Of a stretch of DNA of 64,000 bases, positions 1,598 to 35,728 are shown in pieces. The position numbers and the translations under genes are program-made. The notes under the pieces are model-generated. The model did no database searches and was not told the origin of the DNA. It saw nothing but the letters and a program-made list of their open reading frames with translations. Numbering within the stretch: the first letter of the stretch is position 1; the number at the start of each line of letters is the position of its first letter. This DNA is from Marsupella aquatica. Lineage: Eukaryota > Plantae > Marchantiophyta. The DNA is taken from contig OZ316893.1 in NCBI GenBank assembly GCA_973895155.1, positions 15,654,645 to 15,718,644 of the forward strand. The letters are read 5' to 3'.

Positions 1598-3676
1598 TCA
1601 CGGATGCTCCAGAACCTTTGACTGTCCAAGTAGAGTGTGTAAGCAAATTGCTAGGCACATCGTCATGGCCACCAAAGCCTTCGATGCAGTGGCTTGGGCC
1701 AGCTCCCCTGTCTTATTAATTACACGTAAGACTTTGGCAGTACCTGCACTCCTTTCAGATACAGATCCTTTCTCTGCTTTACCTCGTAGCGTCTGTGATA
1801 CCTTGGAGAGCATTACATCAATCGTCGAGCGAATAGCTTCTGACGTCACCGTGCCAGCAACATCCAACACGAGGGCTCGGTTGCTTGGTACAGCTAAAGT
1901 CCGAGAGAATCCCTCAATCCACCCCTGGGAAATTTCGGAAGACTTTGTAGGAAAGACTACTGGCTTCCCATTAATCTGACGGTAGCTTGAGGACGAAAGA
2001 AGAGGCGCTTCCCCCTTGTCGAACTCACCGACTGGCATCTTCTTCTCACTCTGTGGAGAATGATCAAAAGCAATCCTCTTGCTTCCTAAACCAGAGAGAC
2101 TCAAGCTCTCCGAATCATGGCTATCCGGACTCCAAGGAGGTGGTGACCCTGGAGCCAAATGGTCATTCCCTCCATCACTAGTACCACACTCACCTGAAGC
2201 TCCACCGTCTGAATGATCCAACTGATTGAAGCAGCTATTCTTCCCAAGAGAAAAGGTCAAACGCCGGACATCACGACGAGAACCCAGTCCAAATTGTGTG
2301 GACTCCATGGTTTGACTTTGCTGAGGTGCGGACGAGGATGAGGCCACCGATAACACTTCATGAGATGCTCGAACCAAAGTTTCCAAGGCCCCGTTGCAGA
2401 CTGATGTCAGGAGATCCTTCACCGAATCTCTATGTGCAGGGTTAGCGACCGTGCTAAGAATTTCTTCGTAAATGTTGATGTCTCGAGTTTTGTCCAAATA
2501 AACTGAAACCGCCGTTCCTACAAAAGTCTCAATGCAATCCGCAATAAGGGACTTTCCCTTACTGCTACAAATAAATTTTATCATCCCGTCTTGGAGAGTC
2601 CCGGAAGCAGCAGGGGAAGACGTCGGCTTCTTGATAGCTTCCTCGCTGGTGACTCCATCCGTCGCCCTTGCCTTCGGCTGTGGATTCTTAGTGTCTTTTG
2701 CCTCCCACCTCATGGTTCTCAACATTTTGTCCCCTATAATGTTCGCATCGTCCTGGTTCATCTGTTGCATGCCCTCAAGCACAGAGAGGACAAGACTGCG
2801 AGTAGCACTTGCCACCACGACGGCGGCGAAACCCCGGCCGGCCTCGCTGAAAATCTTCCCCACCAGCCGTTCGGGAAGCCCTTCTTCCCTCCTTTCCATC
2901 CTTTCCCTCTTCGGAATTGGAGATCTACTCTTCCTTCTCCCACCACTGCCACTTGTCTCTGCAATTGATGCACCAGTCGGTGACCCACTCCACGCCCTCC
3001 CTACCCCATCCTCATCCTGCTCTCTCAGCCGACGCCCACCTTCTCCGCCTTCATTAAGAAATGCACTATCACCCTTCTCCAATTTTCCCCTCCTGTACTC
3101 GTGACTAGAGTTAACCTCACCTGCATCTTTGAGGTTTGGGGTATAGGCTTCCCCCAAAGATTCCTTCCATCTCCTTTCCTTCCTAAATTCCCTACCTGAC
3201 TTTCCAATCCTTTTGAATCCTTTTCGAGATGATAGCTCTTCAAACAAGGCCGACCCGTAATCGGCCCCGTCTTGCAAAATGGGGGCTTGTTGCTCGAGAA
3301 GACTACTTGCAACGCCTTGAGTGACAGATTTACACAAGAGAGCCACAATTATCTGGAATTCCCGGGTATGGCCTACTTTGAACAATTGCTTGAGGGATTG
3401 AGGTACTTCGTCCTCCTTGGAAAGAAGAAAAGAATGCAGGTCTTTCCACAATACGCCCACGCAGTCGCTTCCTTGAGCAGCAGACTCTAGCAGGGAGGAA
3501 AGAGAACGAAAGAATCGATACAATTGGAGCCGCTTGCGTGTGAGAGATGGAGAATTATAGACACGGTAAGCGACGTACCCCCCCGCACCGATTGCACAAC
3601 AGGCTAAGAGCAAGTTCCGTTGACGACGTGACGTCTGTGGGAACGGGAATGGGAGGAGGCTCTGGAGACTTTCCAT
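1598..3676 (-). CDS. PHLOEM PROTEIN 2-LIKE A10 family protein (At1g10150-like), 692 aa, single coding exon
   Basis: The N-terminus RRQRNLLLACCAIGAGGYVAYRVYNSPSLTRKR..KDLHSFLLSKEDEVPQSLKQL and the core GRGFAAVVVASATRSLV, GKSLIADCIETFVGTAVSVYLDKT, KDLLTSVCNGALETLVRASHEVL and LAVPSNRALVLDVAGTVTSEAIRS match the conserved blocks of this family as I recall them. Low-complexity insertions lie between the blocks. Confidence 0.85.
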   Translation of the reverse strand: MESLQSLLPFPFPQTSRRQRNLLLACCAIGAGGYVAYRVYNSPSLTRKRLQLYRFFRSLSSLLESAAQGSDCVGVLWKDLHSFLLSKEDEVPQSLKQLFKVGHTREFQIIVALLCKSVTQGVASSLLEQQAPILQDGADYGSALFEELSSRKGFKRIGKSGREFRKERRWKESLGEAYTPNLKDAGEVNSSHEYRRGKLEKGDSAFLNEGGEGGRRLREQDEDGVGRAWSGSPTGASIAETSGSGGRRKSRSPIPKRERMERREEGLPERLVGKIFSEAGRGFAAVVVASATRSLVLSVLEGMQQMNQDDANIIGDKMLRTMRWEAKDTKNPQPKARATDGVTSEEAIKKPTSSPAASGTLQDGMIKFICSSKGKSLIADCIETFVGTAVSVYLDKTRDINIYEEILSTVANPAHRDSVKDLLTSVCNGALETLVRASHEVLSVASSSSAPQQSQTMESTQFGLGSRRDVRRLTFSLGKNSCFNQLDHSDGGASGECGTSDGGNDHLAPGSPPPWSPDSHDSESLSLSGLGSKRIAFDHSPQSEKKMPVGEFDKGEAPLLSSSSYRQINGKPVVFPTKSSEISQGWIEGFSRTLAVPSNRALVLDVAGTVTSEAIRSTIDVMLSKVSQTLRGKAEKGSVSERSAGTAKVLRVINKTGELAQATASKALVAMTMCLAICLHTLLGQSKVLEHP

Positions 3677-6061
3677 AGCTACCTCTTCTCTTCTCGTAGT
3701 TGCGGTGCTGCTCGCTTCTGTTGCAGCGCTAGGAGGAATTCAACCTGGAGGGCTATGAGACCCCGCAGCTCATTGATGCAGCCAAGATCACAAATCTTCG
3801 TTTGTCAACCGGAGGTCGCAAACTGGCAAACTATGCAAATACAACAGGTCATTCATACCAGACACAAACGGGGACTTCAAACATTCGTTGTTTTCGCGGT
3901 TCCCGTTTCAACACGAGGAATAAAATTGGCCACCATTACACCACACAGCTGATTGAAAAACACACTAAGTTAACCTCCAGAAATCCTGTTCCCGAGCCCG
4001 CTTGGTTACAAAGAGTCCGTCGTCCCTCTGAAACCCTAATGCACCCTCAACCGAACTCTTGCCGTACCAGAGCTTCAAGAGGAGCAAAGCCGTAGCAGTT
4101 CTTCACAGACCTCTCCCAACAATCCCTGGAATTCCTAAAGAAAGAACAATCGCCCTCATAGCTTCGCCCCTCTACAACCGCACGTCTTGTTTTGTCCTCC
4201 ACCGGAATGGAGTGTAAAGGAAGCTCCGCTGAAGCTATCATAGCAAAGCGAAAACGCTTAACGCAACTCACGTCACATCACGTCGCGTCAGCGATCAGCT
4301 CAGCCAGCTCTGCATCGTCCTTCCACAGACGACAATCCACGGCTTCTTCGTCTGACCAAACTACTGTTCTCCGGGCAGTCTATCGCTCCTCCTCCGTCGA
4401 AACAACCATATACAATCCCTACTAACAAGAGGACGAGTCTGCTTCTACAGAACTGTGCTCCATTCAATCAACAGCAACTTCAAATTCTATAGTATCCCAA
4501 CCGGAAGATCATTAGGTCGTCGCTTCTTCATCTACCAAATTATTGAATGATAATCCCGGCGACGACAACGCCGAGACAGGGACATCGGCCTGCTGCTCTT
4601 CCCGGTTGTGGCATCTTTGATCAACTGATACAGACGATGGCGCTCGTCAGATTCGCTCCACGCGAGGGACGACTGCGGATGAGATGTCGTGCGAAAGAGA
4701 ATTCAGACATCTCAGAGTTGCAGAGGTCGCGTCCTCCCTCGGGGTTTCTGATACGCGTTCGGCCACTCGTTTTTGGAGCAGATTCCTATGAACATGGATA
4801 TTTCATATCCAGCTACCGACATTTCGCATTCACACAATGGATCATTCTCTGCCTCGAAGCGCATCTTCACCAAGCGATAGAAATCGAAGTTCCCCCATAA
4901 ATCTTGGGTGGGGCCAAAGTTCGTTAAAGTAGCAGTAAGTTTTCGTTCCCCAAACGTTTGGTACCGTAATAAGATGCGGTTGGAGAGCGAAACAGTAGTG
5001 TAGGTCCATCGCACGATGGGCCGAGTGTAGAATGAAATCTATGTTCAACTTGTCTCCGACTCTCCCGAGGTTCCTCGTGAGTCTTAACAACTTTACCACA
5101 TGTTTAAGTTGTACACGCGGCAGAGTGTTTCATTGAAGTGGGGCCAGTGCACTTTGTTTACCGTAGTGTAATCCGGGTTTGTGATTCTCCAACTATAATA
5201 TCCAATCCATTGTCCTCTTACAAAAATAGCTCCTCTTACAAAAACAGCTCTGACTGGGAACCATAAACAGCCTTTGGTTTTTTTTTTGCACTTTTTCTCT
5301 AACCATTCAATGCAAAAAGGTGCGAGGTGTTAGGATTTATTCTTAAGTCTAAAATTAGTAGTACCATAGTTAAGGCTAATCTTAGTTGCAAACTTGGTTA
5401 GATTAATCATGCTGTGCACACTCTATAACCAAGCGATGTTTGTTTGAAGAATGGGAACTTAGGTTCATTGTTATGCTTGCTGATTCGCAAAAAAAAAGGC
5501 AAGGCGCATATGGCTCTATGCTGGGCTCCCTATCCCCTCCATAGGGTTCATAGAAGCTATTCCGTGAGAGTTTTTCGGCTAGCTTGCCGTAACCTTGGTC
5601 ACTACTGTTACCCCCCATCCAGGTGCCCCTCGCGCACATGGTGCAGTTACACCTTATCCTCAGAGCACCCCTCCACGGAGCACCGCAATCGGAAGGAGCG
5701 CCTGAACATGGCGTAAATACGGTCCAGAGTCCGCATGTCAGAGCCACATTGGACGCCCCTGCTGCCGCCGCACCTTCGGAATCTATCGATGATTTGTGGA
5801 GAGCTTGGCTCGAGTCGTTTCAGGACCTTTGGGCAGCTTTCTTTATCCCACCGCCATGGACTCGATAGGCCTCTTTGAAGAAAAGCTCAAGCATGAGGTA
5901 ACGGGTGACAGGATTTTGAACCCGATATCGAACCAGACACACCATCAGGTAACCCGTTGATCTATTATACGTAGAAGGTCGGTCCCCTCCGACATGGGCT
6001 GCCGCACCCCCGCGCATATGCCGAAGCCTGGGTAAGCAAAAATATTTCTCTGTTTTTCTTT

Positions 6062-11624: not shown

Positions 11625-14600
11625 ATGGCGCAAGCATGCATACCTCATTCCTCGTCAATAAGGTAAAATCCGCGTCCCTGTCATAAACCTATTTCGGGCT
11701 CACTGTGACTTTTACACTTCCAGAATTTCTATATCGCTCATGTCTGTGTCCCTCCACCTTCCTCCGTAGTGCGATTAATCTCAGTTTCAGCCATACTACA
11801 ATATATTCTATCAGCATGCAGTTTATCCTTTAGAATTTCCTACCGTTTGGCTCATCGTCGCTCTCCTGTGCTTACTTACTCGCTGGCAGTGGAGCATCAG
11901 TATCATCCCCTCGCTTGCTCTGGAGCCCTTCCGAAGCCCTCGAGAAACCGTGGAGAGCGTTGCAGGAAGTAATTAGGCTGTTGCTGGACAACTTTTAACT
12001 TCTGCAAGCCCTGCTCGGCATGATTCAATGACGCTGTTGCTGGATAACTTGTAACCTTCTGCAAGCTCTGTTCGTCTCGACTCCTTCAAATTCTTTATGG
12101 CCGTTTGCCTTAGTATTCCAAGATTGTAGGAGCATTCAGCTTAATTCAGGCGGTCGTTTTTGTAGATCGTCAATTTAGGGTAACATTATCGTAGTTGGAA
12201 AAATGTTCCCCTATGTTCCCTTGGATCTGCACAAAAGCGCCCCAATACGCCCTACTTTGCGATCCTCTCCCCTTTCATATCAACCATAGTGCCCTCTATC
12301 CAAAAACTTTCGCAAGTCATTCGTAGGGGCTTTACTTGTTCCCTGCAGCGTCCGTTTGCATGTTAGGACGGATGCCTTGAAGGCCTTGATCTCTACTGAA
12401 AGCTTGACAGATTGATAGTCCTGTCCCGAAATGTAGGTTCCCAGCATGTTGCACAAGGGAAATTAGTTATAACATTGCGTCCCTTGTCTTCGCTGCAGAG
12501 CGATCTCATTCCATGAACAAGCCTTTGGAAATGAAGCTCGCCCTTTCAATTTCTTGGAGACTTAATTAATTCTTATCTCTCCTCACCCACGGTCGTGGCT
12601 TTGCGCCGGCCTCTAGAGTTTCTTGTCAGCAAGAGCCTCCCTCTTAAAATGCCGATGAACCTCCCGAGTTACTGAGTGCAAGATTACCCACGCTGCGACA
12701 TGTCAATTCTTCTCTTCGTAGTCCCCAGTCATTTATGTCAGTGTAAGCCATGGAATGATTTCCTTGAATAATTACTTATTATGGAAGTTCTTTAGCAAGT
12801 TTCTTGGTTGGTGACGTTCCGAAACCTACCTAACCTAAAGTAGACGTCTTCAGGTTGGGTGGGAATTTGCTGTTTACAACTTTGAGGAAGGATGGCTCGC
12901 AACAACCGTCGTGGATGGTAAGCAGAGTTGCTATAATATCATAGAGTCCATGCAGTGGCTTCTGTTCGAGGAGAGGGAGACCTCATCAGAATTACTCCGT
13001 CTTGAAGAATCTATCGTTAGTTAACCTGCAACCTCCTTTGCAGACGACCAAATCTAGATTTTGGGGAAACGTCGAGATGCTTGGGTGTGGCAATCTATGC
13101 AGTTCTGGTCGTGGATTTTCTCTATCTGGAAGAGCAGTACCCAATGCTCACAAAGCCAGGTGCGGAATCCATTCGAGTGCTGTGCTGCAATTTGCTGAAC
13201 GCTTGTTATTGCATCTGTCCTCTTTTCCAGGCTTGCCCGTCCCTTAGTTTACCTACAAGATTCTATGATATGCTGTTAATGGTATGTACAAGTAAAATAT
13301 CTGTGGTACAGTACAAGCGTACCGTGAATGTTGGACATTAGAAGTTTCTTTCCCACCGTTCAGAATATGCGACAGGTGCTGAGCGAAACTTGATGACTTG
13401 ATCGATTCCTAACTTTTCTTGTGTTTCTTTGTTAACTCGTTGGCGTGTTGTGTTTACAGGGTTTCGTGCTTGTAATGTCTATTTTCTTACTAACATCTGC
13501 AAGTCTGCACATATGATGTAGGAATCGAGTTCCAAAACTAGTCAGTTCAAGTATTCGAGAGCCTCACCCAAGCAAGAACACAAGCGGTGGAAGTCAATTT
13601 TCAAGCTCGCCAAAAAAACATCAAACCATTTCTGATGGACTTACCCCGAGCAGTTCATCTGCCAGTGCAGCATCAGCCACAGTCCCAACTGTGCCAGTTG
13701 AGGTTGAGGAGTCTGGCCCGGAGTTTTCTATCAGGATGGATAATGAGTCCACTCCGGGCGTGTCTGTGATTGAAATTCAGGGTGTCGACCAGGAGAACTT
13801 ATTGGTTGATGTTACAAGCAGCTTCAGTGAAATGAGAGTAAGGCAAGTTTATCTGAGTTTGTCACTGTTTGACCTATGTAGTTCTGACCTTTATGCAAAC
13901 TATTCTTTCCTTTTCAGGACAACTTGCATATCACCAGTGCAATTGTCTTTCCTGGAATTCTCCGGGCTTGCTGGGACTCTCTGGATTGATGAAATAATTA
14001 CATGGCAAAACCTCTGATCCTTCGTATCTGATACATAAACAGTGTACAAAGTGCAAAAGTCCTTACTAGGAATGATCGTGTATTAGACATCTTCACTGTG
14101 GTGGATTCTGAGACGAAGGCAGCCCTAGATGAAGACCAGTGGCTGAAAGTCAAAGAAAAAGTACTCACCAAGTTGAAACGACGTAGAAGCATTCATGCAT
14201 CTAGAAACGATCCACTCCTTCTGGATCAGGTGCGCCAACATTCTCATCAGGTTGCTGCTACTGTGTACCATTGGCATTAGAAATGTATCTTGTTAAGTTT
14301 GATGTACAAATCAGATTGCAAACTGGATGTATCTGGCCAAATATCAAGTTTCCTTGGTCGCATTCTTTCTGTGCTCGAATTTTGTAAAGTTGGCTCGAGT
14401 GAATGCCTTGCAAAGGAAACATAAGTATCTTACAAATGATAGAGTTCAACTGGGAAATGGACAGGTGTCATTTCTCTGTTCAGCATTGGACAAGGTAGTG
14501 GAGGAACATGGCACTGCAGAAGTAGTTGAAGCCGTGAGTTTCGTTCCTCCTCTCGTTCCAGATCTGTTATTGTCTTTGGGCATCAATTTTATTGAAAGCG

Positions 14601-17600
14601 ATCGCGAGAGTGGTATATCCCTGACATGTTTGATTACATATGGATATGTTTAAGCCCTCTAATTTTCTGTGGAATTGGCTTTGCAGGCATATTTTCTTCA
14701 GAGCGGAATTGAATCTCTGAAATTCAATGAGGATCCTAGGAAGCGAGCGGATTTGCTGCGTTACGTTGATAACATGGAGCAATCAAAGGTAGAGTACTTG
14801 TTTCACATACTTAGTGACAGGACAATGTGATAGGTAGAGCAAAGAGCTGAGGCAGTTCTGGTGGATCCCTGACATACTTGGCTGATGGTTTCCAATCGCA
14901 GATAACTGGAGTCATAAGAATATTCTACCTTTATGCCGCACTTTTAAATGTAGCTGACGAAGCACACAGTCATCGTCAACGGCGGGAGCAGGTGCAGATC
15001 CTGAACCTTGCTGATCTTGTTAAAATGCTTTGTGAGACTTCTTATGTTGTATCACCTGAAGAGTTAAGGATGGAGCTATTGATGTCCGGGTGAAACAAAT
15101 CTGGAATTATTCATTACAGAAATGTGCTGGGAATGCTATGGCTTGTCGTCTTGGATAGAAATCTACACAGATTGGTGCAGGGAATGTGTAGGCGGTTGGG
15201 TTTGCATTGATGCATATTGCTCCTGTACAGGTGTGGGCTAGCCAACATGCCACGCCGTTATGGTATGCGTCTTTTGATCACACTCTTAGACTTTTTAAGA
15301 AAGCTGGTGTTAGTCCCAACGAGCTTCAGGAGCTTTTGGATCGTACTGAGGTGAGACAAGCAAGTCTAAGCTCTTGGTTCCTCCGAGCATTGAATAGCCA
15401 GTTTACTCCACTTCGTACCTTCTGTTAGTTGACTTAAGTGGATGAATGAATCGATATGAAGTTGTGATTTTGACAGATTCTACAGTGCAATTTTCTACGT
15501 TCATCATTCCTGTATCGCTTGAGGGCACGAACTCACCTGCCCGATAAAAGAAAATCTAACTAGTACTGAAGTACGCCCTTTTCAATCTTGCAGTACAGTC
15601 CAGTTTTTACAGCTCATCCAACAGAAGCTCGACGCAGAGAAATTCTCACCTGTCTGCACCGGATCTTTGACCTCTGCATCGCTAGAGAGGTTTTTCCCGA
15701 ATATGTTGAAAACCAAGTAGTGTGACGGCTTCATTTCATTCGTGATCACATTTGCGAATCTGCTAAGTCCAACCTTGTGTCGTTTGTACATACTATCACC
15801 ACAGGCGTTGGATGTCATGTTTCTTGAAAAGAGCGGAGAGATTTTACTGTTGGTCTATTGCGCTGTTAGTCCTACCTTCTATTTAATTGTGCCTAAATTA
15901 CTATACTTTCCTGGTGGTATTGAGGAGACAAGAATTGCTCACGTTGGAAATCATAAACATTTTCTAACAGGACCCAAGGCTGAGCCCTGCACAGAAGACA
16001 GAGATTGAAGCTGAAGTCGAAGCTGAGGTTGGATGATAGACTTACTCGGTTATCCCTGGGTCTTTACTTCCGTTTCATTGTTGCTCTGCTGTCTTATTAT
16101 TCCCCTTCATTGTTTACAGCTTGTGCAAGCGGGTGGTCGGAGCAATTTATGCTAGTTATGAGTTTTCTCTAAGCCTGACATTTTTTCGCCGAGGATCTTT
16201 GTACAAGGGCAGTTGCATGGGCACTTTTGTTCGGGCAAGATGTGCGTTGTTTACAGGGGCAATTGAAAGTAGAATCGTTTTGTTACTGGCAAGACGTTGC
16301 ACTAAGAGGGTGAAAAGAAAGGAACTGCATATTTATTATTTGATAGTCATGTTAATTCTGCTCAAACGGCCGCAGATTGAGATCTTGTGGAGGACAGATG
16401 AAATGCGCCAAACAAAACCAACAGTGATGGAAGAAATCATGACTGGTCTCGATTACTTCCGTTACTCCCTCTTTGAAGCTGTCTGCACTACTTACAGATA
16501 TGCTGAAAATTCACTGAAGGTACAATAGTTCTGTGTCTGAATTCCCTCAAGAGCATAAGCATAATTTGAGTGGAAACTCCGTCCCAAATACATTATTGAG
16601 CCGATTCAATGACTTTAAGACTCAGGGTGGATGATAAGCTTATCATTGCAATTTGGTGGATGAGGCAGCATGTTTATGGAGGTACGGTGGTACTTCCCAG
16701 TTTAATTAAATTTGGATCATGGATTGGTGGTGACCGTGATGGAAACCCTTATGGTAGGTCACAAGTTTCCTATGCATCGGGAAATGATTTTCGTTTGTTT
16801 TTAGCATCTGAAGTTTTCTCCTAATTCATTGAACCATAAGACGTTTGTGAACTCTCGCAGGTTCCTAAACTTTCTGGATGTCGTTTTGCTTCTTTTCTGA
16901 ATGCAGTGCTTCCAGAAACTACTGTTATGGCTGCCCTTCTTGCGAGTAGGCTGATTGTTGCTGAGTACATACGACGGTGTCGCGCCTGTCAGGTTGCTGC
17001 TTTTACTTGCTCGATCTTTCTACAGAGATGACATCCATTGACCGTCTCCTTCTTTCTCGTATTCCCTTCTTAGTTTAGTGCGGCAAAGATTTTCTCGTTG
17101 TCGTTGCATACTGCAATGACTACTGTCTACTTTTTGTGCTGAAATCCATACGAATTCTATTTTTGGATTTGTTTTTATCAACAGTGTAAAAAACATTCAA
17201 AATTAGCTGGTTTAAGTAAGTCATCTTGAGCGATCATGGAAATGTTTCCACGGAACAAATTTCTCCCAATAACTAGGGTTTTAAGAAGCATTTCATTATC
17301 GCAGTCTCTATACTGCTTGTTGTAAAGTGATCATAGACATGTCAGGTTACAACTGTCGTATGACACAAACTATTAAGATGAAATCGTTAGTTGTATTTGC
17401 TGTAGGAAAAATCAACTATCTATTCAGTCATCACGCCTGAGACTTCTGTCTTGTTGTACTGATTCTTTTGAGGTTCTCGCAAATTTCATGGATGTTACAG
17501 GACACATTGACGCAGTCATTGCAAATCTGCAAAGTATCACCACAATTGCTGGAAAGTCTAGAAGAAGACAAAAAGATTATTGAAAAGATCCCTACCCTTC

Positions 17601-20600
17601 GACATCAAGTCGGTGCGTTTGAACAGGTGCTTATTAAGACCGGGTCCGACAATTGTGTTGGTCTCTCTCGAATCTAATTCTCCTGCCTGGCATTGTCAGC
17701 TGGAGGTTTCTAACCAGTAGTATGTTTTATTTCAGGAACCTTACCGCCTAAAGTTGCGAGTAATGCGACATCGTCTGGAGCAGATGCTTCGAACTGTAAA
17801 TGCCCTCTTACGCAAGTTGGGTGGAACTAACCTAAGTGATGAGGTAAACTTAAGCTGGATTTCTTGCTTGTATATCGTATTGCAACAGTTGGAGAGTTGT
17901 CCGTTCTAGACTTCTTGAAGATAGGTTGTCTTTTCTCTGGATATTTGAGGATTGCAATTTTCCCTTTCCTTTCCAGTATTGGAGTTATTGTTCCGCGTAT
18001 CTGGCAAAATTGAATAGAAATAACGTGTAAACTTTGTGCAAATTTTGGTCCAGTTGCTGATTGACATTGAGTACAATATAGATCAAATACCTGGGCTTGA
18101 TCCCAAGGAGGATACGTATGCTGACGAGCGAGGTTTTCTACATGACCTCAAATTGATTGATGTGAGTTTAGTGTTCTCTCTGTATGGGAATTAAACTGAC
18201 TTCCCTTGAATGGTGGAAGGACTCCCTATTTAAAATGCATTCGCAATAGTTTAAGCATCCCGTCTCGTCCAATTGATCAGGATGTAGTTATAGCATAATG
18301 CAAGAGTTTCTCTCCACAAACGGACTCAATTGTCAGGATTCTGTTGTATGGTCTGCAGCGATCGTTGAGAGAAAGTGGGGATGTGCGACTGGCTGATAGC
18401 AAGCTTAAGGATCTGATCCGACTAGCAGAGACTTTCGGATTTCATCTGACTTCTCTGGATGTCCGGCAAGAGTCTACTCTGCATACAGAAGTGCGTGCTC
18501 AATGCTTTCTGTTTTGTGGACATGACAACTGGTAGAAACAAATTAGTTTAACTTTACTTGACAAATTACAGAGTATTATTGTGCGCAACTGCTTCAGATT
18601 TGCTTTGATGTGTTCCGTAAAGTAATAGATGACGTCTAAATTCTTGGGCAGGCTACTGCAGAATGCATGAAGCTTCTGGGCTTTGCAGAAGACTACAAGT
18701 CGTTACGTGAGGAAGAGAAGATGGCCACACTTGCAGAAGCTTTGGCCAAGCCACCTCCTGTTGACAAGGTTGAGGTAAGTGAATAAAACTATTACTTTCT
18801 CAATCAGGCATCTGCTAATGGGCTTATGGACGATGATCTGTGTATCCTAGCTGACAGAAATGTTTTGCAGGGCTTACTGAAGACAGTGTCAGATTCAACC
18901 CGTGAGGTTCTTGGAATCTGCAGTGCTTGTGCGGAAATCATGGACACCATCGCTCCTAAAGCTATAGCATCCTATGTTATTTCTATGACGCGTTCAGCGT
19001 CAAATGTCATGGAGGTGAGTCTTTCCAACGCTTTCATTTATGTGTGCTTTTGTTTTTGCAGATAAATGTTCTATAAAGTTACTTCCCGTAACAGATCTCC
19101 TTTGCTCTGCAACATTCTGTGTTACGCAGGTATTATTTTTAGCATGGTTCACATGTCAAGGCCTAATTGGAAAGACATCGTCCGGTGAATGGAAAGCCAA
19201 CATGGTGGTTTCCCCATTGTTTGAGACAATTCCTGACTTGGAGGTACTGTATTATATCGAGCCTACTTGATCAGGCTGTAGTTTTACCTAGGCCTCTCTG
19301 TCGTGAGGATCTATCAAATCTCTGAATCGCAGCAATTGTCATCTACCGGGAGTTGATGAGGTGGATGGGGTCGATCTGATTCAGAACATGCCCGGAGCAC
19401 TGGAGCTTCTGCTTGAGAACAACATTTATAAAGAAATCTTGGAGGCATCTGGTGGTGTCCAGGTGCGTTGTCAACGACCCTGTAGTCTGACAATTCTTAT
19501 GCGGGTAATGTAATTGTCAGGAGAGCGTTGGTTGACAAAATAGTCTTTATCTGGTAATTTCTCAATTACTAATCCAGGTTCATAATAAATTACAAATAAT
19601 GCAAGCATCCCTGGCAGGTCGGTACAATCTTTTGAGAGTGCTCGTGTTGCTTTGCAGGAAGTCATGCTGGGTTACTCCGACTCATGTAAAGACGGAGGTA
19701 TCTTTGCCAGTGCTTACAATCTGTACAAAGCTCAAGAGGTGATTCAAAGGATCACAAACAAGGCAGGAGTCAAGTCCCGCATATTTCATGGGCGTGGTGG
19801 CACAGTTGGGCGAGGAGCGGGCCCAACCCATGAAAGTGTCCTTGCGCAGGTATCAATTTTGGGTTGCCAGTCTTCTCTCAACTTCTGTACAGGGGTGTGA
19901 CAAGGATTAATGGTATATTGCAATTTTTTGGTGTTTTGTAGTTTGTGAGGAGAGATTCTCAGAAGCGGTCCTTCGAGCTTGTGGTCCTATGTGGGAAAGC
20001 CTCCGACGCCAGCTAGGACTGCATTCCTAATGTTCATGATCTCGTTACAGCCACCCGGGAGCGTTGATGGCAAAATTAAATTCACGGAGCAAGGCGAAGT
20101 CATCACATATCGTTACGGCAACGCTCCGACAGCAACCTATGAGCTCACGGTGGGTCTTGTCAAAACTAGGACCCTCAGTTGGCGACGCTTTCGTAAGTCG
20201 TCAATGTAGGGAATTTTTTTTTAAATTCTGATGAGGTCATATGATTCCGGAAATTAGACTGCGTTGCTCTTTTCATTCAAGATTCACCAGAAATACATAT
20301 TAGACAGGAATGTTGCTGTTCGGAATTACGAAAAATCGGCGCAGACGTTCTTCGCGTTCACGGCGTAATATTTGTGTTTGTATTTTGCAGGTTGGTATTA
20401 CTGGCCTCCTCAAAGCCAGTCATCCGACTACACGCGCAGAGGTGGTGGACAACCAGAAGGTCTGTGCCCTCACATTTGGAATTTTAAAAGTTCAATGTTC
20501 CCACTGAGGTTTTTGATAATGGCTGTTTGTCTTCTCTATATGCGGTTTGTACTTTGTAGAGTTAACACTTGGATGTGGGCGGCTTGCAGTACTTCCAAGT

Positions 20601-22030
20601 TATGGATGAGCTAGCAGACCATGCAGAGAAGCACTATCGAGGATTGACTGACAACACGGAAGGCTTTTATGACTACTTCTATGATTGTACTGTGGTGAGC
20701 GAAATTGGGCTTATCAATATCGGTAGTCGGCCTACCCGACGGAAAGCTGCTGTCCGTGATAAGACGTCCTTGCGAGCCATTCCTTGGGTGTTTGGATGGG
20801 CACAGGTAGGGTCAAGAACTCTTGATGTGAGTCGAGAAAGTCGATCATCTTGACGAGGACATAAATGTAGCTAAACTAATCAATAATTCGTGCCTTGATA
20901 CCCGCCGTCTTCATTACATCGGGAAGTAGCTGAAGAGACAATTTCGGAATCTAGGAGCCTTTTTGATTTGACGGTACTGCTGTCTGGCTGGCAGTCTCGG
21001 CACACGCTTCCGGCTTGGTATGGAGTTGGCAGTGGTATACTTGGATACACTCAAAATGATCCTAGTCGTATTCAGGAGCTTCAGCGAATGTACATTGAGT
21101 GGCCATTTTTCCGCAATTTTCTTTCGAATGTCCAGGTATTAAAATCAAGAACATCTCGTCATTTAGCTCAGCAATTCAAAGGACTCGCGTTGCAGAGACG
21201 TCCTCTCTAGGACTGCACTGCATTTTAAGATTTCGCATCAGTTAATAGTTTTGTCCTCTGCAGATGTCGCTCTTCAAGGCATCCATGGAAATTGCACAGG
21301 AGTATGCCAGACTTTGCAGGTTAACCTTTTTGTCCACACCCCCATCCCCCTCCGTCTCTCTCCTCTTCTTCCTCTTCTCCCTTATCCTGGCAAGTGCATT
21401 GTCACTCATGGATCTCAAGCCATGCAGATCTTTGATTGTACTTCGCTGCTTTAGCCTGCCTAACGTGTGTTCTGTTCATCAAATCGCTCTTGATTGCAGT
21501 AACCGAATCACAGAAAGACTGGTCTACGATTTGGTTTCCCAAGAGTACTCCTTGACGATAGAACAGGTACATCTCTCAAGGACTACAAGATATAAGCAGC
21601 TTTAGTCATTGGAATTCCTATTCATTTGCGACTCTCTTCAAACGACAAGTGACGCTAGAACGCTCGCCTCAGGATTCTACCCGCCTGTGCAGATTTTGAT
21701 GATTTCGCAACAAAATGCACTACTCGAAGATAACGCAGGATTGCAGAGATCGTTCAACACTCGCCGGAAATATCTTGATCCTCTCAATCACATTCAAGTG
21801 AGTTTTCGTTTCTGGCTCATACTAACTTGAAGTTTGCAATAAATAATTTGTGTTGTATTAATTTCCTAGCTGGATCGTCATTTGACAATGGTCGGCTTAT
21901 TGGCTAACAGGTGATCTTGTTGGGGAGAAGGAGAGATCCAACTGCGTCTCAGGAACAAGTCTTAATCTGGGAAAAACCATTGCTGCGAACAATAAAAGCC
22001 ATTGCTAGCAACATGCGAAATACTGGATAG
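11625..22030 (+). CDS. ppc: Phosphoenolpyruvate carboxylase with putative plastid transit peptide and N-terminal ACT domain, about 1190 aa, 31 coding exons
   Basis: Hand-spliced, phase-consistent exons: 11625-11662, 12854-12917, 13044-13159, 13522-13842 (GC donor), 14043-14229, 14465-14533, 14687-14788, 14902-14991, 15231-15350, 15594-15689, 15971-16027, 16376-16519, 16669-16753, 16907-16992, 17501-17626, 17736-17843, 18054-18161, 18359-18490, 18652-18774, 18871-19014, 19130-19243, 19385-19462, 19658-19849, 20051-20149, 20391-20459, 20590-20805, 20995-21135, 21264-21319, 21500-21566, 21693-21797, 21911-22030. PEPC motifs: [97 protein letters not shown] and C-terminal MRNTG-stop. The first three exons are less certain than the rest. 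Confidence 0.93.
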
Positions 22031-23450
22031 GTGCTCATTTGTGGAATTGGTGACTACTCGTTTCCACTGCTCTTACTGTCCTGCCAACCTGCTCTCACAG
22101 AAGAATGTTCTCCTCCACTCGACTATGAAATCACTGGAATGTCTCGTCTAGCTCTTTGAGGTGATCTGGACGGTTTTTGAAATCTCAGAATATCAATTAA
22201 GTCTGGTGAACAATTTTACAAAGTTGTTCAGGAGGATAGATCGAGATCAGGAGTAACTCATTTTGGTGGATCGGGAAAATCAAATTCACGATCTCCGTAT
22301 ACCCGGACCTTAAGTAAGAATGTTAACATTAATGACGATTGTTTGATTGCCCAGGCCACACGACATTTCTTGCATCGTAAATGTGGAAACGCCTCTACCA
22401 GGGAACCTGGAGCCGCGAAAATACCCGGAGATGAGCCAGGCATACAGACGGTGAAGGTGAATGTCCGTAAAACCGTACATTCAAATGGGTTCCTGGCGAG
22501 CTTGCTGTAGGATTAGCACCCGTGCTGGAATGCGTCGTAATCGGAGTATTGTTGGGGGCATCAACTGGAAAAGACTTTCGTAGCTCAAGTTGGGTCCCTT
22601 CTGTTGTCCAAGAAGATATCAATCGTCTGTGATTTGCGGAACTGTCTCCCATCCTGTTGCTTCCTAAACCACTGTTCTTGTTTGGATGTGCCACTCGGGT
22701 CACCCATGACAGGTGTTACGCTGTTACTCTATTTATCTGCCATGTAATCGTTTGGGAGATCTCACATGTATTTTAAGCCAGTTTTCGGAGAGTGAAATTT
22801 GATTATCTTGGCAGCTGGTAGTCTTTAAGTGAAATTTCTTTCTGGTTTACGTTATAGGTAGATAGCAGAAAGATGCCACCTCTCGAAATGGCTCCTACTG
22901 CCATTTTGAAAATTCACGCAGAACATTGAACTCCTCTGACCCGACGCCTGGCCAGAAATTGCCGGTAGTATGTAATTGAAACGTATGAAGGATGTTTTCA
23001 TATGAGTCGTGTTAGTATTGAAGAATAGTTGATGGAGGTGTCATTATGTCCACTTTTTCAAAGAAAGTGGCGCAGTCACAGAGATAGGTGCTTGTTTACT
23101 CCGCAACCCAAAAAGCTCTTTGTATGCAGAGTTCTCTCGAGATGATGACGAGCTTAATTATCCACTCACTGCCTGTGGTTTCCAGTAAAGCCCAAACGGT
23201 ACTCATGTACTTTAATGCTTGATTAAACGTGACCATGGTTTTCATTAAGCTGAAATGGTTATAAATTGTATAACTCTTACGTGATACTGCACTGGTTGAT
23301 GTATATTTGGTTCTTTGTACCTACTGGAATAATTCATTAGTTTCAAGTTTCTGGATATCCACCTGGGGATATCCATGTGCTTAATCCTCATCGGTAGCTT
23401 TAGTTGTTTTTTCCTGACTGCCCTGCCATTTTTGGAACGCACCGGTGAGA

Positions 23451-23606
23451 ACCATACATACAACATGGGGAAATTAAGGGCTTTGTCACAGGATATCCGA
23501 CCACCATACATACAACATGGGGAAATTAAGGGCTTTGTCACAGGATATCCTACCACCATACATACAACATGGGGAAATTAAGGGCTTTGTCACAGGATAT
23601 CCGACC
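23451..23606. repeat. Minisatellite, 3 x 52 bp, near-perfect
   Basis: ACCATACATACAACATGGGGAAATTAAGGGCTTTGTCACAGGATATCC(G/T)ACC at 23451, 23503 and 23555. Confidence 0.95.
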
Positions 23607-34007: not shown

Positions 34008-35728
34008 TCACCTCAAGACAAGATGGTCTATTATTTCAAAATGCATTTGCAAATCTGGGGGCCTCTCACTGAAGTAAAGCCTTTCATTGACTTGAAGTTT
34101 ACCACCTCCATACTTACGAGCAGCCTCCTTCAACAACTGAACGCAGCGGTTCTTCTCCATTACAACCCATCTTCGATTACTATCTTGCCACTGGCGTGGG
34201 GTTCCATGGATTCCAACATAGAAGCCGCCACCTCTTGACCTTGCAGCTTTTGCCAGCCCCTCGAGCACTCTAGGGTCCGTCTGATATGCACCTTGACAAT
34301 TCAACCCAACATCCACATAATGAACCTCTTCAATACTGCTGAGAAAGGCTTCTACGGTAGAAGGTAGTAGTTGGCTTTTCTTCTCTTCTTCGGGTCCTCC
34401 TTTTCTACTCACCTTGTCTTGTAAACTGAATATTTTAAGTCTATGGTCATCATGAGAATTTAAGGACTCCTCGTAATGTACAATCTCCGCTAGCATTTGA
34501 TTGAGGATGACTCCGCCCTTGCTGAAGCCCAAAAGAATCATGGGTGGGCATTTATTCACCAGATCTCGGAAGGGTTCAAAGGGAGATGCCTTTTGTACAC
34601 ATTCATCAGAGCTGCCGTTTTCCTTTCCTTGCAACTCAGCAACTTTGCCATCTTTATGCTTCTCCCGAAGCTGTGCAGCTTTTACCTTCAAGAGAAACAA
34701 TGAAGTTCAACATTAGGAAAAAGAGGGATATTCACGCACAGTATTTTCTGCCTCAATTGACGAGGAAGAGTAAATAGCCAATTCCGAGTAGACAGAGAAA
34801 GGTCTCATCGGGCAATGCTCGTTGGCCAGTACCAGTTGTTACTGTAGAGCCTCCAATGTACATATTTTTGCACAAAGATATTATCTGCGTAAGCCAATCT
34901 TGGAGAAAAGGAAACCAACTAATACTGAGCCAACTATCTGTCACTGCAAATGATACCCCTGTCCTATCCTCTGTGATTTGACTACCGACTCGTACACGTG
35001 AATTGAGGCAGATGATACTCTTCAGTACAATCTTCCATTACATGATTTAGCATAAAGAGATTGATAACCTGCGTAAGACAATCTTGGAGGATGGAGAAAC
35101 AGGCCCGAGCTGCAGGTAAGCCTTTGGGTTTGTAACCTATGGGTTCTCCAGATGCAGTCAAGCTAGGTAAAATGTTTTCATAGCAGGCAAATGGGCCCTT
35201 GTAAACTGACGCTTCCATGATCCACAAGTTCACAGGTTGTTGGCCAAGCTTGGGAAGCAAGGCTGCTGCAATGTTCTCCAAATGCGAGAGGCGTTCCACT
35301 ATTGGATTTGCGGACTCCCTCACTCGATCTCCCACAAAGAATATAACATTGCTTGCCGGCTCCTGCTCTCTACCCCACAAGACCAGCAATCCACATGCCG
35401 AACATTGTTTCAATTACAACAGTGTGCAAGTCGTTGCTTCTTTGACAGTAGACACAGAAAATTTGCAACATCACAATCACGAAATTGACTAAACCCTAAG
35501 AAAATGAAATCACATTTTTGTGTGCAATCATACTGGACAGGGCGAGAAAGGAAGGACAGGGACAGGAAAACAACCAGGGACAGGGCGAGAAAGGAAGGAC
35601 AGGGAGGGAATGAGTCAAACCACAAGAGAGCCCGAAGAAGTGCATGCCAACGAAGCCAAAACTCGGAATCCATGGCTGCTGCTGCTCCTAAGATTCAAGA
35701 CTCCTTTCCATCGTTGTGCCGTAGCCAT
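34008..35728 (-). CDS. C2orf69 / UPF0565 family protein, 3 exons, about 359 aa
   Basis: Exons 35728-35621, 35362-35069 and 34685-34008 (phase-0 introns) give MATAQRWKGVL..FRVLASL..EPASNVIFFVGDRV..GPFACY..GEPIGY..LLGFSKGGVILNQ..VHYVDVGLN..HGTPRQW..LQMHFEII, the family motifs. Confidence 0.88.

Follow-up and report, generated by a model that had tools for sequence, protein, structure and literature searches.

A stretch of 64,000 nucleotides from the liverwort Marsupella aquatica (contig OZ316893.1; hereafter the window) carries exons for an ACT domain directly ahead of exons for a PEPC. This poses the question whether the two belong to one protein, from which lineage such an enzyme descends, and what an ACT domain would do on it.

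ACT domain and PEPC are encoded by one gene

Guided by Calypogeia fissa P0001, the nearest database protein when the exon preceding the ACT domain served as query, we obtained a gene model of 31 exons (Table 1). It has no internal stop, ends with a stop codon at 22028-22030 and is interrupted by 29 GT-AG introns and a single GC-AG intron. The window protein is identical to P0001 in 1080/1191 alignment columns.

Table 1. Coordinates of the ACT-PEPC gene and its features in the window (aa, residue of the window protein).
Feature	Position	Strand	Description or basis
Whole gene	11625..22030	+	31 exons, 3573-nt CDS, 1190 aa: leader, ACT-like domain and PEPC
Leader, aa 1-140	11625-11662, 12854-12917, 13044-13159, 13522-13723 (span 11625..13723)	+	Predicted plastid transit peptide and linker
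ACT-like domain, first half (β, β, α1)	13724..13842	+	Profile matches and model
β2-α1 loop DQENLL, aa 162-167 (DRPGLL motif position)	13787..13804	+	Alignment; in predicted dimer interface
GC-AG intron within ACT-like domain	13843..14042	+	200 nt, donor AAG/GCAAGT
ACT-like domain, second half (β, β, α2)	14043..14184	+	Helix leads into first PEPC helix
ACT secondary structure	strands aa 143-147, 155-161; helix 167-177; strands 180-190, 193-202; helix 211-233		AlphaFold model
PEPC catalytic body, exons 5-31	14209..22030	+	PF00311; gammaproteobacteria-like lineage in trees
Catalytic His motif, H377 = E. coli H138	15603..15623	+	Alignment
Metal, bicarbonate and PEP motifs	19670..19801	+	D844, K847, H880, R882 = E. 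coli D543, K546, H579, R581
C-terminal RNTG tetrapeptide and stop	22013..22030	+	Gene model

The GC-AG intron splits the ACT-like domain (aa 141-228), and the ACT peptide proposed in an initial annotation of the window is recovered when 13724-13842 is joined to 14043 onward over these 200 nt. On paper, 14 alternative in-frame splice choices exist around this intron. The chosen joint leaves the domain free of gaps against its orthologues and recurs in a spliced contig from X1 (13840->14041, with 2 letters of slide), a run that comes from a relative and is presumed to be RNA. Two spliced X1 contigs pass from the ACT exons over the GC-AG intron into the PEPC exons, and one of these also joins exons 1-4; all joints to 15592 are as modelled. 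ACT domain and PEPC are one transcript in this relative; among the listed data sets that contain the stretch itself, none is recorded as RNA. The in-frame fusion claimed from the window alone is thus borne out by the open 1190-aa model and the spliced contigs. Moss and Marchantia gene fragments end at the same point as this intron, which suggests that its position inside the ACT-like domain is conserved.

Chance adjacency or misassembly was ruled out by the presence of the fusion in spliced contigs and in 20/22 orthologues, and a pseudogene by the open frame together with intact catalytic residues.

Run X1 holds two spliced versions of the gene (~91% and <90% alike), whose first exons differ and which may be homeologs or paralogs; Ceratodon also has two ACT-PEPC copies. 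In DNA runs, several extra short contigs are ~90% alike to 13703-13790, 14462-14840 and a region near 15746. These contigs have unrelated flanks and raised depth and may be gene fragments on transposons, the front half of the ACT exon among them.

Sequence comparison places the PEPC body in a third green-plant lineage

P0001 matches PF00311 with an E value of 1e-270 and 900.7 bits (cut-off 22.4), and PRK00009 with 835 vs 815. Residues identical to those of E. coli PEPC are found in 28/28 aligned rows at H138, T140, R396, E506, D543, K546, H579, R581, R587, R699, R703, R713, K773, R832, N881 and G883, 16 positions that we take to be catalytic, metal and aspartate-site residues; E. coli R704 is a lysine in the window model. 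By alignment, the arginines R383, R384, R431 and R571 match those of the sugar-phosphate site of maize PEPC. The residues of the aspartate/malate site are all kept, so that regulation of the conventional kind, independent of the ACT domain, may apply. At the position of E. coli R438, which we assume to bridge the tetramer, the window protein has a proline. Since this position is lost here, and is not kept in bacterial relatives either, the standard tetramer, on which the initial annotation had counted, is not to be assumed.

Identity of the window protein is 48-50% to its gammaproteobacterial matches, 31-32% to plant-type PEPC (PTPC), 33% to bacterial-type PEPC (BTPC; L056) and 31% to E. coli PEPC. 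With PTPC, including rice Osppc4, it shares the fold (TM 0.88 by target), the catalytic residues and probably the reaction, but it stands apart in identity, in an RNTG rather than a QNTG end, in its separate clade and in the ACT domain. The N-terminal SIDAQLR phosphorylation motif that defines PTPC (PMC8435749) is absent from the window protein, and the last helix of the ACT domain fills that part of the alignment. Like the plant BTPC of AtPPC4 type, the window protein has an RNTG end ((R/K)NTG) and no regulatory serine, and would measure ~116 kDa after removal of the leader. BTPC differs from it in having neither leader nor ACT domain, and an AU test rejects their union; Marchantia carries a separate canonical BTPC (PTQ41595). 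A class-2 hetero-octamer of ACT-PEPC with PTPC is unlikely if the compartments differ. PEPCs of sulfur-oxidiser-type Gammaproteobacteria (Sulfurivermis, Thiohalobacter, Thioalkalivibrio) share motif variants with the window protein and form the sister or parent group of its clade in three trees, but are ~930 aa long, without leader, ACT domain or introns. A PEPC of 1321 aa (P0282) bears another N-terminal extension of ~400 aa, by eye of HAD/sucrose-phosphatase type.

Drawing on 272 full-length PEPCs, of which a subset was taken, and on plant-type and bacterial-type ORFs, we computed three trees for the PEPC part, with 99 rows (FastTree), 36 rows (LG+G4) and 30 rows (a quick mixture model). All three recover a green clade with support 100, roughly in species order and well separated from PTPC, BTPC and E. 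coli PEPC. This clade joins the Thiohalobacter/Thioalkalivibrio/Sulfurivermis-type group with a support of 98, 95 and 99, respectively. AU tests reject a union of the green clade with PTPC plus BTPC (p 9e-30), with BTPC (2e-45) and with the cyanobacteria-like row (4e-7), BTPC and cyanobacteria-like PEPC being represented by one tree row each, labelled from motifs. By these trees, ACT-PEPC is neither plant-type nor bacterial-type and forms a third PEPC lineage of green plants.

With aa 140-1190 as the query, 7,999 candidates were scored and the best 120 taken. The best 22 of these reach 967-2378 bits and the first bacterial match 941. The ACT domain is present in 20 of them; the other two seem N-terminally incomplete. 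Among the 22 are proteins of Calypogeia, Marchantia, Riccia, Ceratodon, Diphasiastrum and Mesostigma, unnamed algal proteins, and proteins read from their labels as Spirogloea, Mesotaenium and Chlorokybus; further members of their clusters come from Physcomitrium, Sphagnum and Pterosperma. The architecture is therefore found in liverworts, mosses, a lycophyte, streptophyte algae and prasinophytes. An N-terminal ACT domain is absent from the 98 bacterial matches and from 149 further 50%-level representatives. Among the best 120 of the 7,999 candidates there is no named protein from seed plants, ferns or core chlorophytes, and we infer that ACT-PEPC was lost in these groups.

On the strength of these comparisons, the fusion is ancient. 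A single transfer from Gammaproteobacteria before the split of streptophytes and prasinophytes, followed by the gain of leader and ACT domain, is likely; the direction of this transfer would follow from the nesting of the green clade within bacteria. An operon origin of the fusion was sought at 12 bacterial ppc loci, most of them not from the nearest relatives, where no ACT domain occurs within flanks of up to 3 kb. The initial annotation was correct about the fusion, but had missed its age, the third PEPC lineage and the leader, which resembles a transit peptide.

Leader composition suggests import into the plastid

The leader starts with MA, and its first 60 residues comprise 13 Ser/Thr, 6 Arg/Lys and 2 acidic residues. 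It is disordered in the P0001 model (pLDDT <50 for aa 1-138), and leader identity across families is 14-22%. At most two acidic residues occur in the first 60 of 14/17 family members, while the core is 13-15% acidic; 9/17 members start with MA, and their leaders are rich in Ser/Thr and ~90-160 aa long. From this composition, plastid import of ACT-PEPC is predicted. Rice Osppc4 provides a precedent for a chloroplast PEPC, with a role in ammonium assimilation (PMC8435749). A mitochondrial or cytosolic location, or service in an algal C4-like CO2 pump instead of nitrogen-linked anaplerosis, appears improbable to us. In its favour are an acidic leader in one prasinophyte, for which an incomplete N-terminus may account, and the C4-like pumps that have been suggested in prasinophytes (PMC7455551), but the MA starts and Ser/Thr-rich leaders fit plastid import and the gene is retained in C3 bryophytes.

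The N-terminal domain resembles the ACT domains of GlnD and ACR proteins

ACT-clan models match 16/16 members of the ACT-PEPC family, and the ACT domain of the C. fissa orthologue matches PF24931 with E 3.9e-6 and 27.3 bits (cut-off 27). GlnD models match the domain with E values down to 6e-11, at their C-terminal ACT. Conversely, the family profile recovers the GlnD C-terminal ACT with a probability of 97.7 and, beyond PEPC relatives, matches five GlnD-type proteins and one ACR11-like protein (E 8e-9). The second ACT domain of E. coli GlnD scores 40.2 bits against the PEPC ACT domain, the first 26.9 bits. The GlnD/ACR type assigned earlier thus holds, with the domain nearer to GlnD ACT2 than to ACT1, and as judged from these profiles the match is beyond chance.

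An ACT fold is also predicted. The AlphaFold model of P0001, computed with 128 alignment rows in place of a single-sequence prediction (pLDDT 35.7), has a mean pLDDT of 83 and shows a disordered leader, a ββαββα ACT domain at pLDDT ~90, and a helix that continues from this domain into the PEPC body. In a structural search with aa 141-225, the best match is the ACT-like domain of maize R (9c7o; Z 9.6, rmsd 3.3, 79 aligned), followed by GL3 (Z 9.2) and an aspartokinase ACT (Z 8.8, rmsd 2.2); aspartokinase ACTs match at Z 7.8-8.8. Foldseek with the full model returned PEPCs only among the matches listed, and a sequence search of solved structures found Rel ACTs only (best E 2.6e-7). Atlas matches all lie under 0.9 and are taken as leads only.

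The domain shares with the ACT-like domains of the GlnD C-terminus, ACR and bHLH proteins the ββαββα order, a DN motif before β2, the loop position and a D-x-F in β4; it differs from them in being a single copy and, in the window gene, in sitting on an enzyme. One survey reports ACT-like domains only in GlnD, ACR and bHLH proteins (PMC10175843), to which the modelled PEPC domain would add a further host. An ACT-only tree (31 rows, 88 columns) separates neither a GlnD from an ACR origin nor the PEPC ACTs as one clade. Identity is lower in the ACT domain than in the core, at 58% vs 76% to Ceratodon and 23-28% vs 50-54% to prasinophytes and Mesostigma.

A deviant ligand loop has a precedent in a glutamine-activated amylase

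Compared with DRPGLL, the DQENLL loop of the window protein keeps D, L and L and replaces R, P and G. Among 16 aligned family members, the glycine position holds Gly in 8, Asn in 7 and Asp in 1. Algal loops are NRPGLL- or DKPGLL-like; the loop is DQANLL in Chlorokybus and DQ(E/D)NLL in bryophytes, all of whose members lack the Pro and Gly; the alignment puts this shift within the streptophytes. The two loops of E. coli GlnD are DRPYLF and DQPGLL. At 13835-13837, the α1-β3 loop of the window protein carries an arginine (R178), where all other aligned bryophyte members have a glycine.

The initial annotation took the loop as a sign of altered ligand specificity or of an interaction module. That step is weak, because the Chlamydomonas alpha-amylase AMA2 is activated by glutamine with the loop DKAHLL, which has neither Pro nor Gly (PMC11190351). 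DQENLL is therefore no argument against glutamine. A shifted ligand for the bryophyte ACT is still possible, since the DQ(E/D)NLL loop is fixed in bryophytes. AMA2 dimerises via its ACT-like domain and responds to glutamine only with that domain; the mutant L110G is almost insensitive to glutamine, and D106F and G122D still respond (PMC11190351). By spacing, AMA2 D106, L110, G122 and F141 correspond to D162, L166, R178 and F197 of the window protein. The match of D162 proves little, because D106F stayed sensitive. Counted by eye, ~26/83 positions match between the ACT domains of AMA2 and the window protein; against P0022, AMA2 matches at ~28/80 (PMC11190351 Fig. S9).

AMA2 and the phosphorylase STA4/PhoB are built like the window protein, with a putative transit peptide, a single N-terminal ββαββα ACT-like domain and an enzyme of carbon metabolism (PMC11190351). 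With AMA2, the likeness extends to the domain sequence and the non-canonical loop; the STA4 domain, too, is close to the PEPC ACTs in sequence. The two differ in their catalytic domains; ACT-dependent dimerisation and glutamine activation are shown for AMA2, whereas for the PEPC the former is predicted and the latter drawn by analogy. No PEPC appears in the list of ACT-bearing proteins of PMC11190351. These similarities hint at one sensor module that would be common to several plastid carbon enzymes, PEPC, AMA2 and STA4.

The ACT domain is predicted to pair

In a homodimer prediction, the C. fissa ACT domain scores 0.39 against 0.19 for the best control, exactly at the margin of 0.20. The predicted pair lies side by side and touches through the α1 helices and the strands, with the β2-α1 loop among the contacts. 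Runs agree in at least 96% of contacts with pLDDT of at least 86; the supplied alignment was not used. The same mark is passed by 21/30 solved pairs and 0/23 single chains in a microbial benchmark, and by 17/29 pairs and 0/30 single chains in a eukaryotic one, where 1/7 pairs without an older solved relative pass. Because ACT-like dimers have already been solved, the pass may reflect memory of these.

The domain might bind no ligand and only pair subunits, as an oligomer contact of the kind found in bHLH proteins. The predicted homodimer would fit this, as would the best structural matches, R and GL3, which are dimerisation domains (PMC10175843), the proline at the E. coli R438 position, which is lost in bacterial relatives too, and the bryophyte loops without Pro and Gly. 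These matches and loops, together with the lower conservation of the ACT domain relative to the core, count against a sensor. We nevertheless regard pairing alone as somewhat unlikely, given that the AMA2 domain dimerises and also mediates glutamine activation (PMC11190351), that bacterial relatives do without an ACT domain, and that algal members retain a DRPGLL-like loop (DKPGLL, NRPGLL).

A possible amino-acid switch on plastid carbon fixation

We lean modestly towards a plastid PEPC of the third green-plant lineage, of gammaproteobacterial origin, that would be tuned by an amino acid via its dimerised ACT domain. By analogy with its relatives, the domain itself is somewhat better explained as an amino-acid sensor than otherwise; glutamine is the leading, though tentative, candidate for its ligand. 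The leader would direct the protein to the stroma and be cleaved, as its composition suggests. ACT domains would then pair side by side between subunits, an amino acid would bind at their interface, and binding would shift PEPC activity via the linking helix. If AMA2 and GlnD are a guide, glutamine would activate the enzyme. Activation once nitrogen is assimilated would supply oxaloacetate next to GS2/GOGAT, to be used in making aspartate-family amino acids and in exporting malate. As the ACT domain sits at the place of the phosphorylated serine of PTPC, it would replace the phosphorylation switch of that enzyme.

ACT domains usually act in feedback inhibition. An aspartate-family, branched-chain or aromatic amino acid could accordingly inhibit the PEPC and ration plastid PEP, a variant of the sensor that would suit both this usual role and the aspartokinase matches; the fixed DQ(E/D)NLL loop also suggests a selected change. 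We consider it unlikely, since the nearest sequences, GlnD ACT2 and AMA2, are both tied to glutamine.

The domain could alternatively dock the PEPC on a partner such as ACR11, Fd-GOGAT, GS2, PII or another ACT-bearing plastid enzyme and so build a carbon-nitrogen metabolon. ACR11 interacts with Fd-GOGAT (PMC4944146), and an ACR11-like protein is among the matches to the family profile. Docking seems a distant prospect all the same, as the PEPC has one ACT domain, against a tandem pair in ACR11 and GlnD, and the partners are hypothetical.

Returning to the glutamine-sensing enzyme, a broader and speculative scenario can be drawn. Early green algae would have sent a sulfur-oxidiser-type gammaproteobacterial PEPC to the plastid and equipped it with a GlnD-like glutamine sensor, as on amylase and starch phosphorylase. 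The resulting plastid-wide glutamine switch on carbon flow would have been retained all the way from prasinophytes to bryophytes and lycophytes, with a loss in seed plants.

Relation to previous work

Plant PEPC has been described as two subfamilies, and how C4 and CAM evolved has been interpreted on that basis. Deng, in 2016, is said to name a third subfamily, 'PPC-3'. If this is the ACT-PEPC clade, the lineage is already in print, though not necessarily its ACT domain or origin. The Marchantia PTQ42341, Physcomitrium Pp3c12_10250, hornwort AANG007402 and Spirogloea genes were recovered in PMC8784020, labelled 'PEPcase superfamily' and left out, with two PEPC subfamilies as the conclusion; of its Table S1, 60/73 'superfamily' rows and 15/19 BTPC rows are covered here. 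From length and domain start, we infer that AANG007402 and Pp3c12_10250 belong to the ACT-PEPC family. Pp3c12_10250 has also been placed as the sole member of 'BTPC IV' among 135 proteins (PMC8435749). Some isoforms are named 'ACT domain-containing protein' in UniRef, so that automatic annotation does pick up the architecture. A main-text literature search found no description of ACT-PEPC or of these genes; HGT catalogues in subscription journals and bioRxiv supplements could list it. ACT-PEPC is apparently a distinct, ancient and uncharacterised lineage.

A third lineage of separate origin that is present in both Marchantia, as MARPO_0030s0078, and Physcomitrium can be tested in these two models. 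If the ACT domain senses glutamine, the enzyme would directly couple anaplerotic carbon fixation in the chloroplast to nitrogen status. It would further serve as a single-enzyme readout for ligands of plant GlnD/ACR-type ACT-like domains and, for engineering, as a PEPC that is independent of a kinase.

Other features of the window

On the minus strand, an open frame of 713 aa, hydrophobic over an N-terminal stretch, lies at 1598-3739 and has no Pfam match at E 0.01. An exon of the C2orf69 family (PF10561, E 7e-14) is found at 34008-34706, also on the minus strand. At ~23330-23600, a short tandem repeat with a unit of ~40-45 nt shows up as repeated peptides in the translations of several frames.
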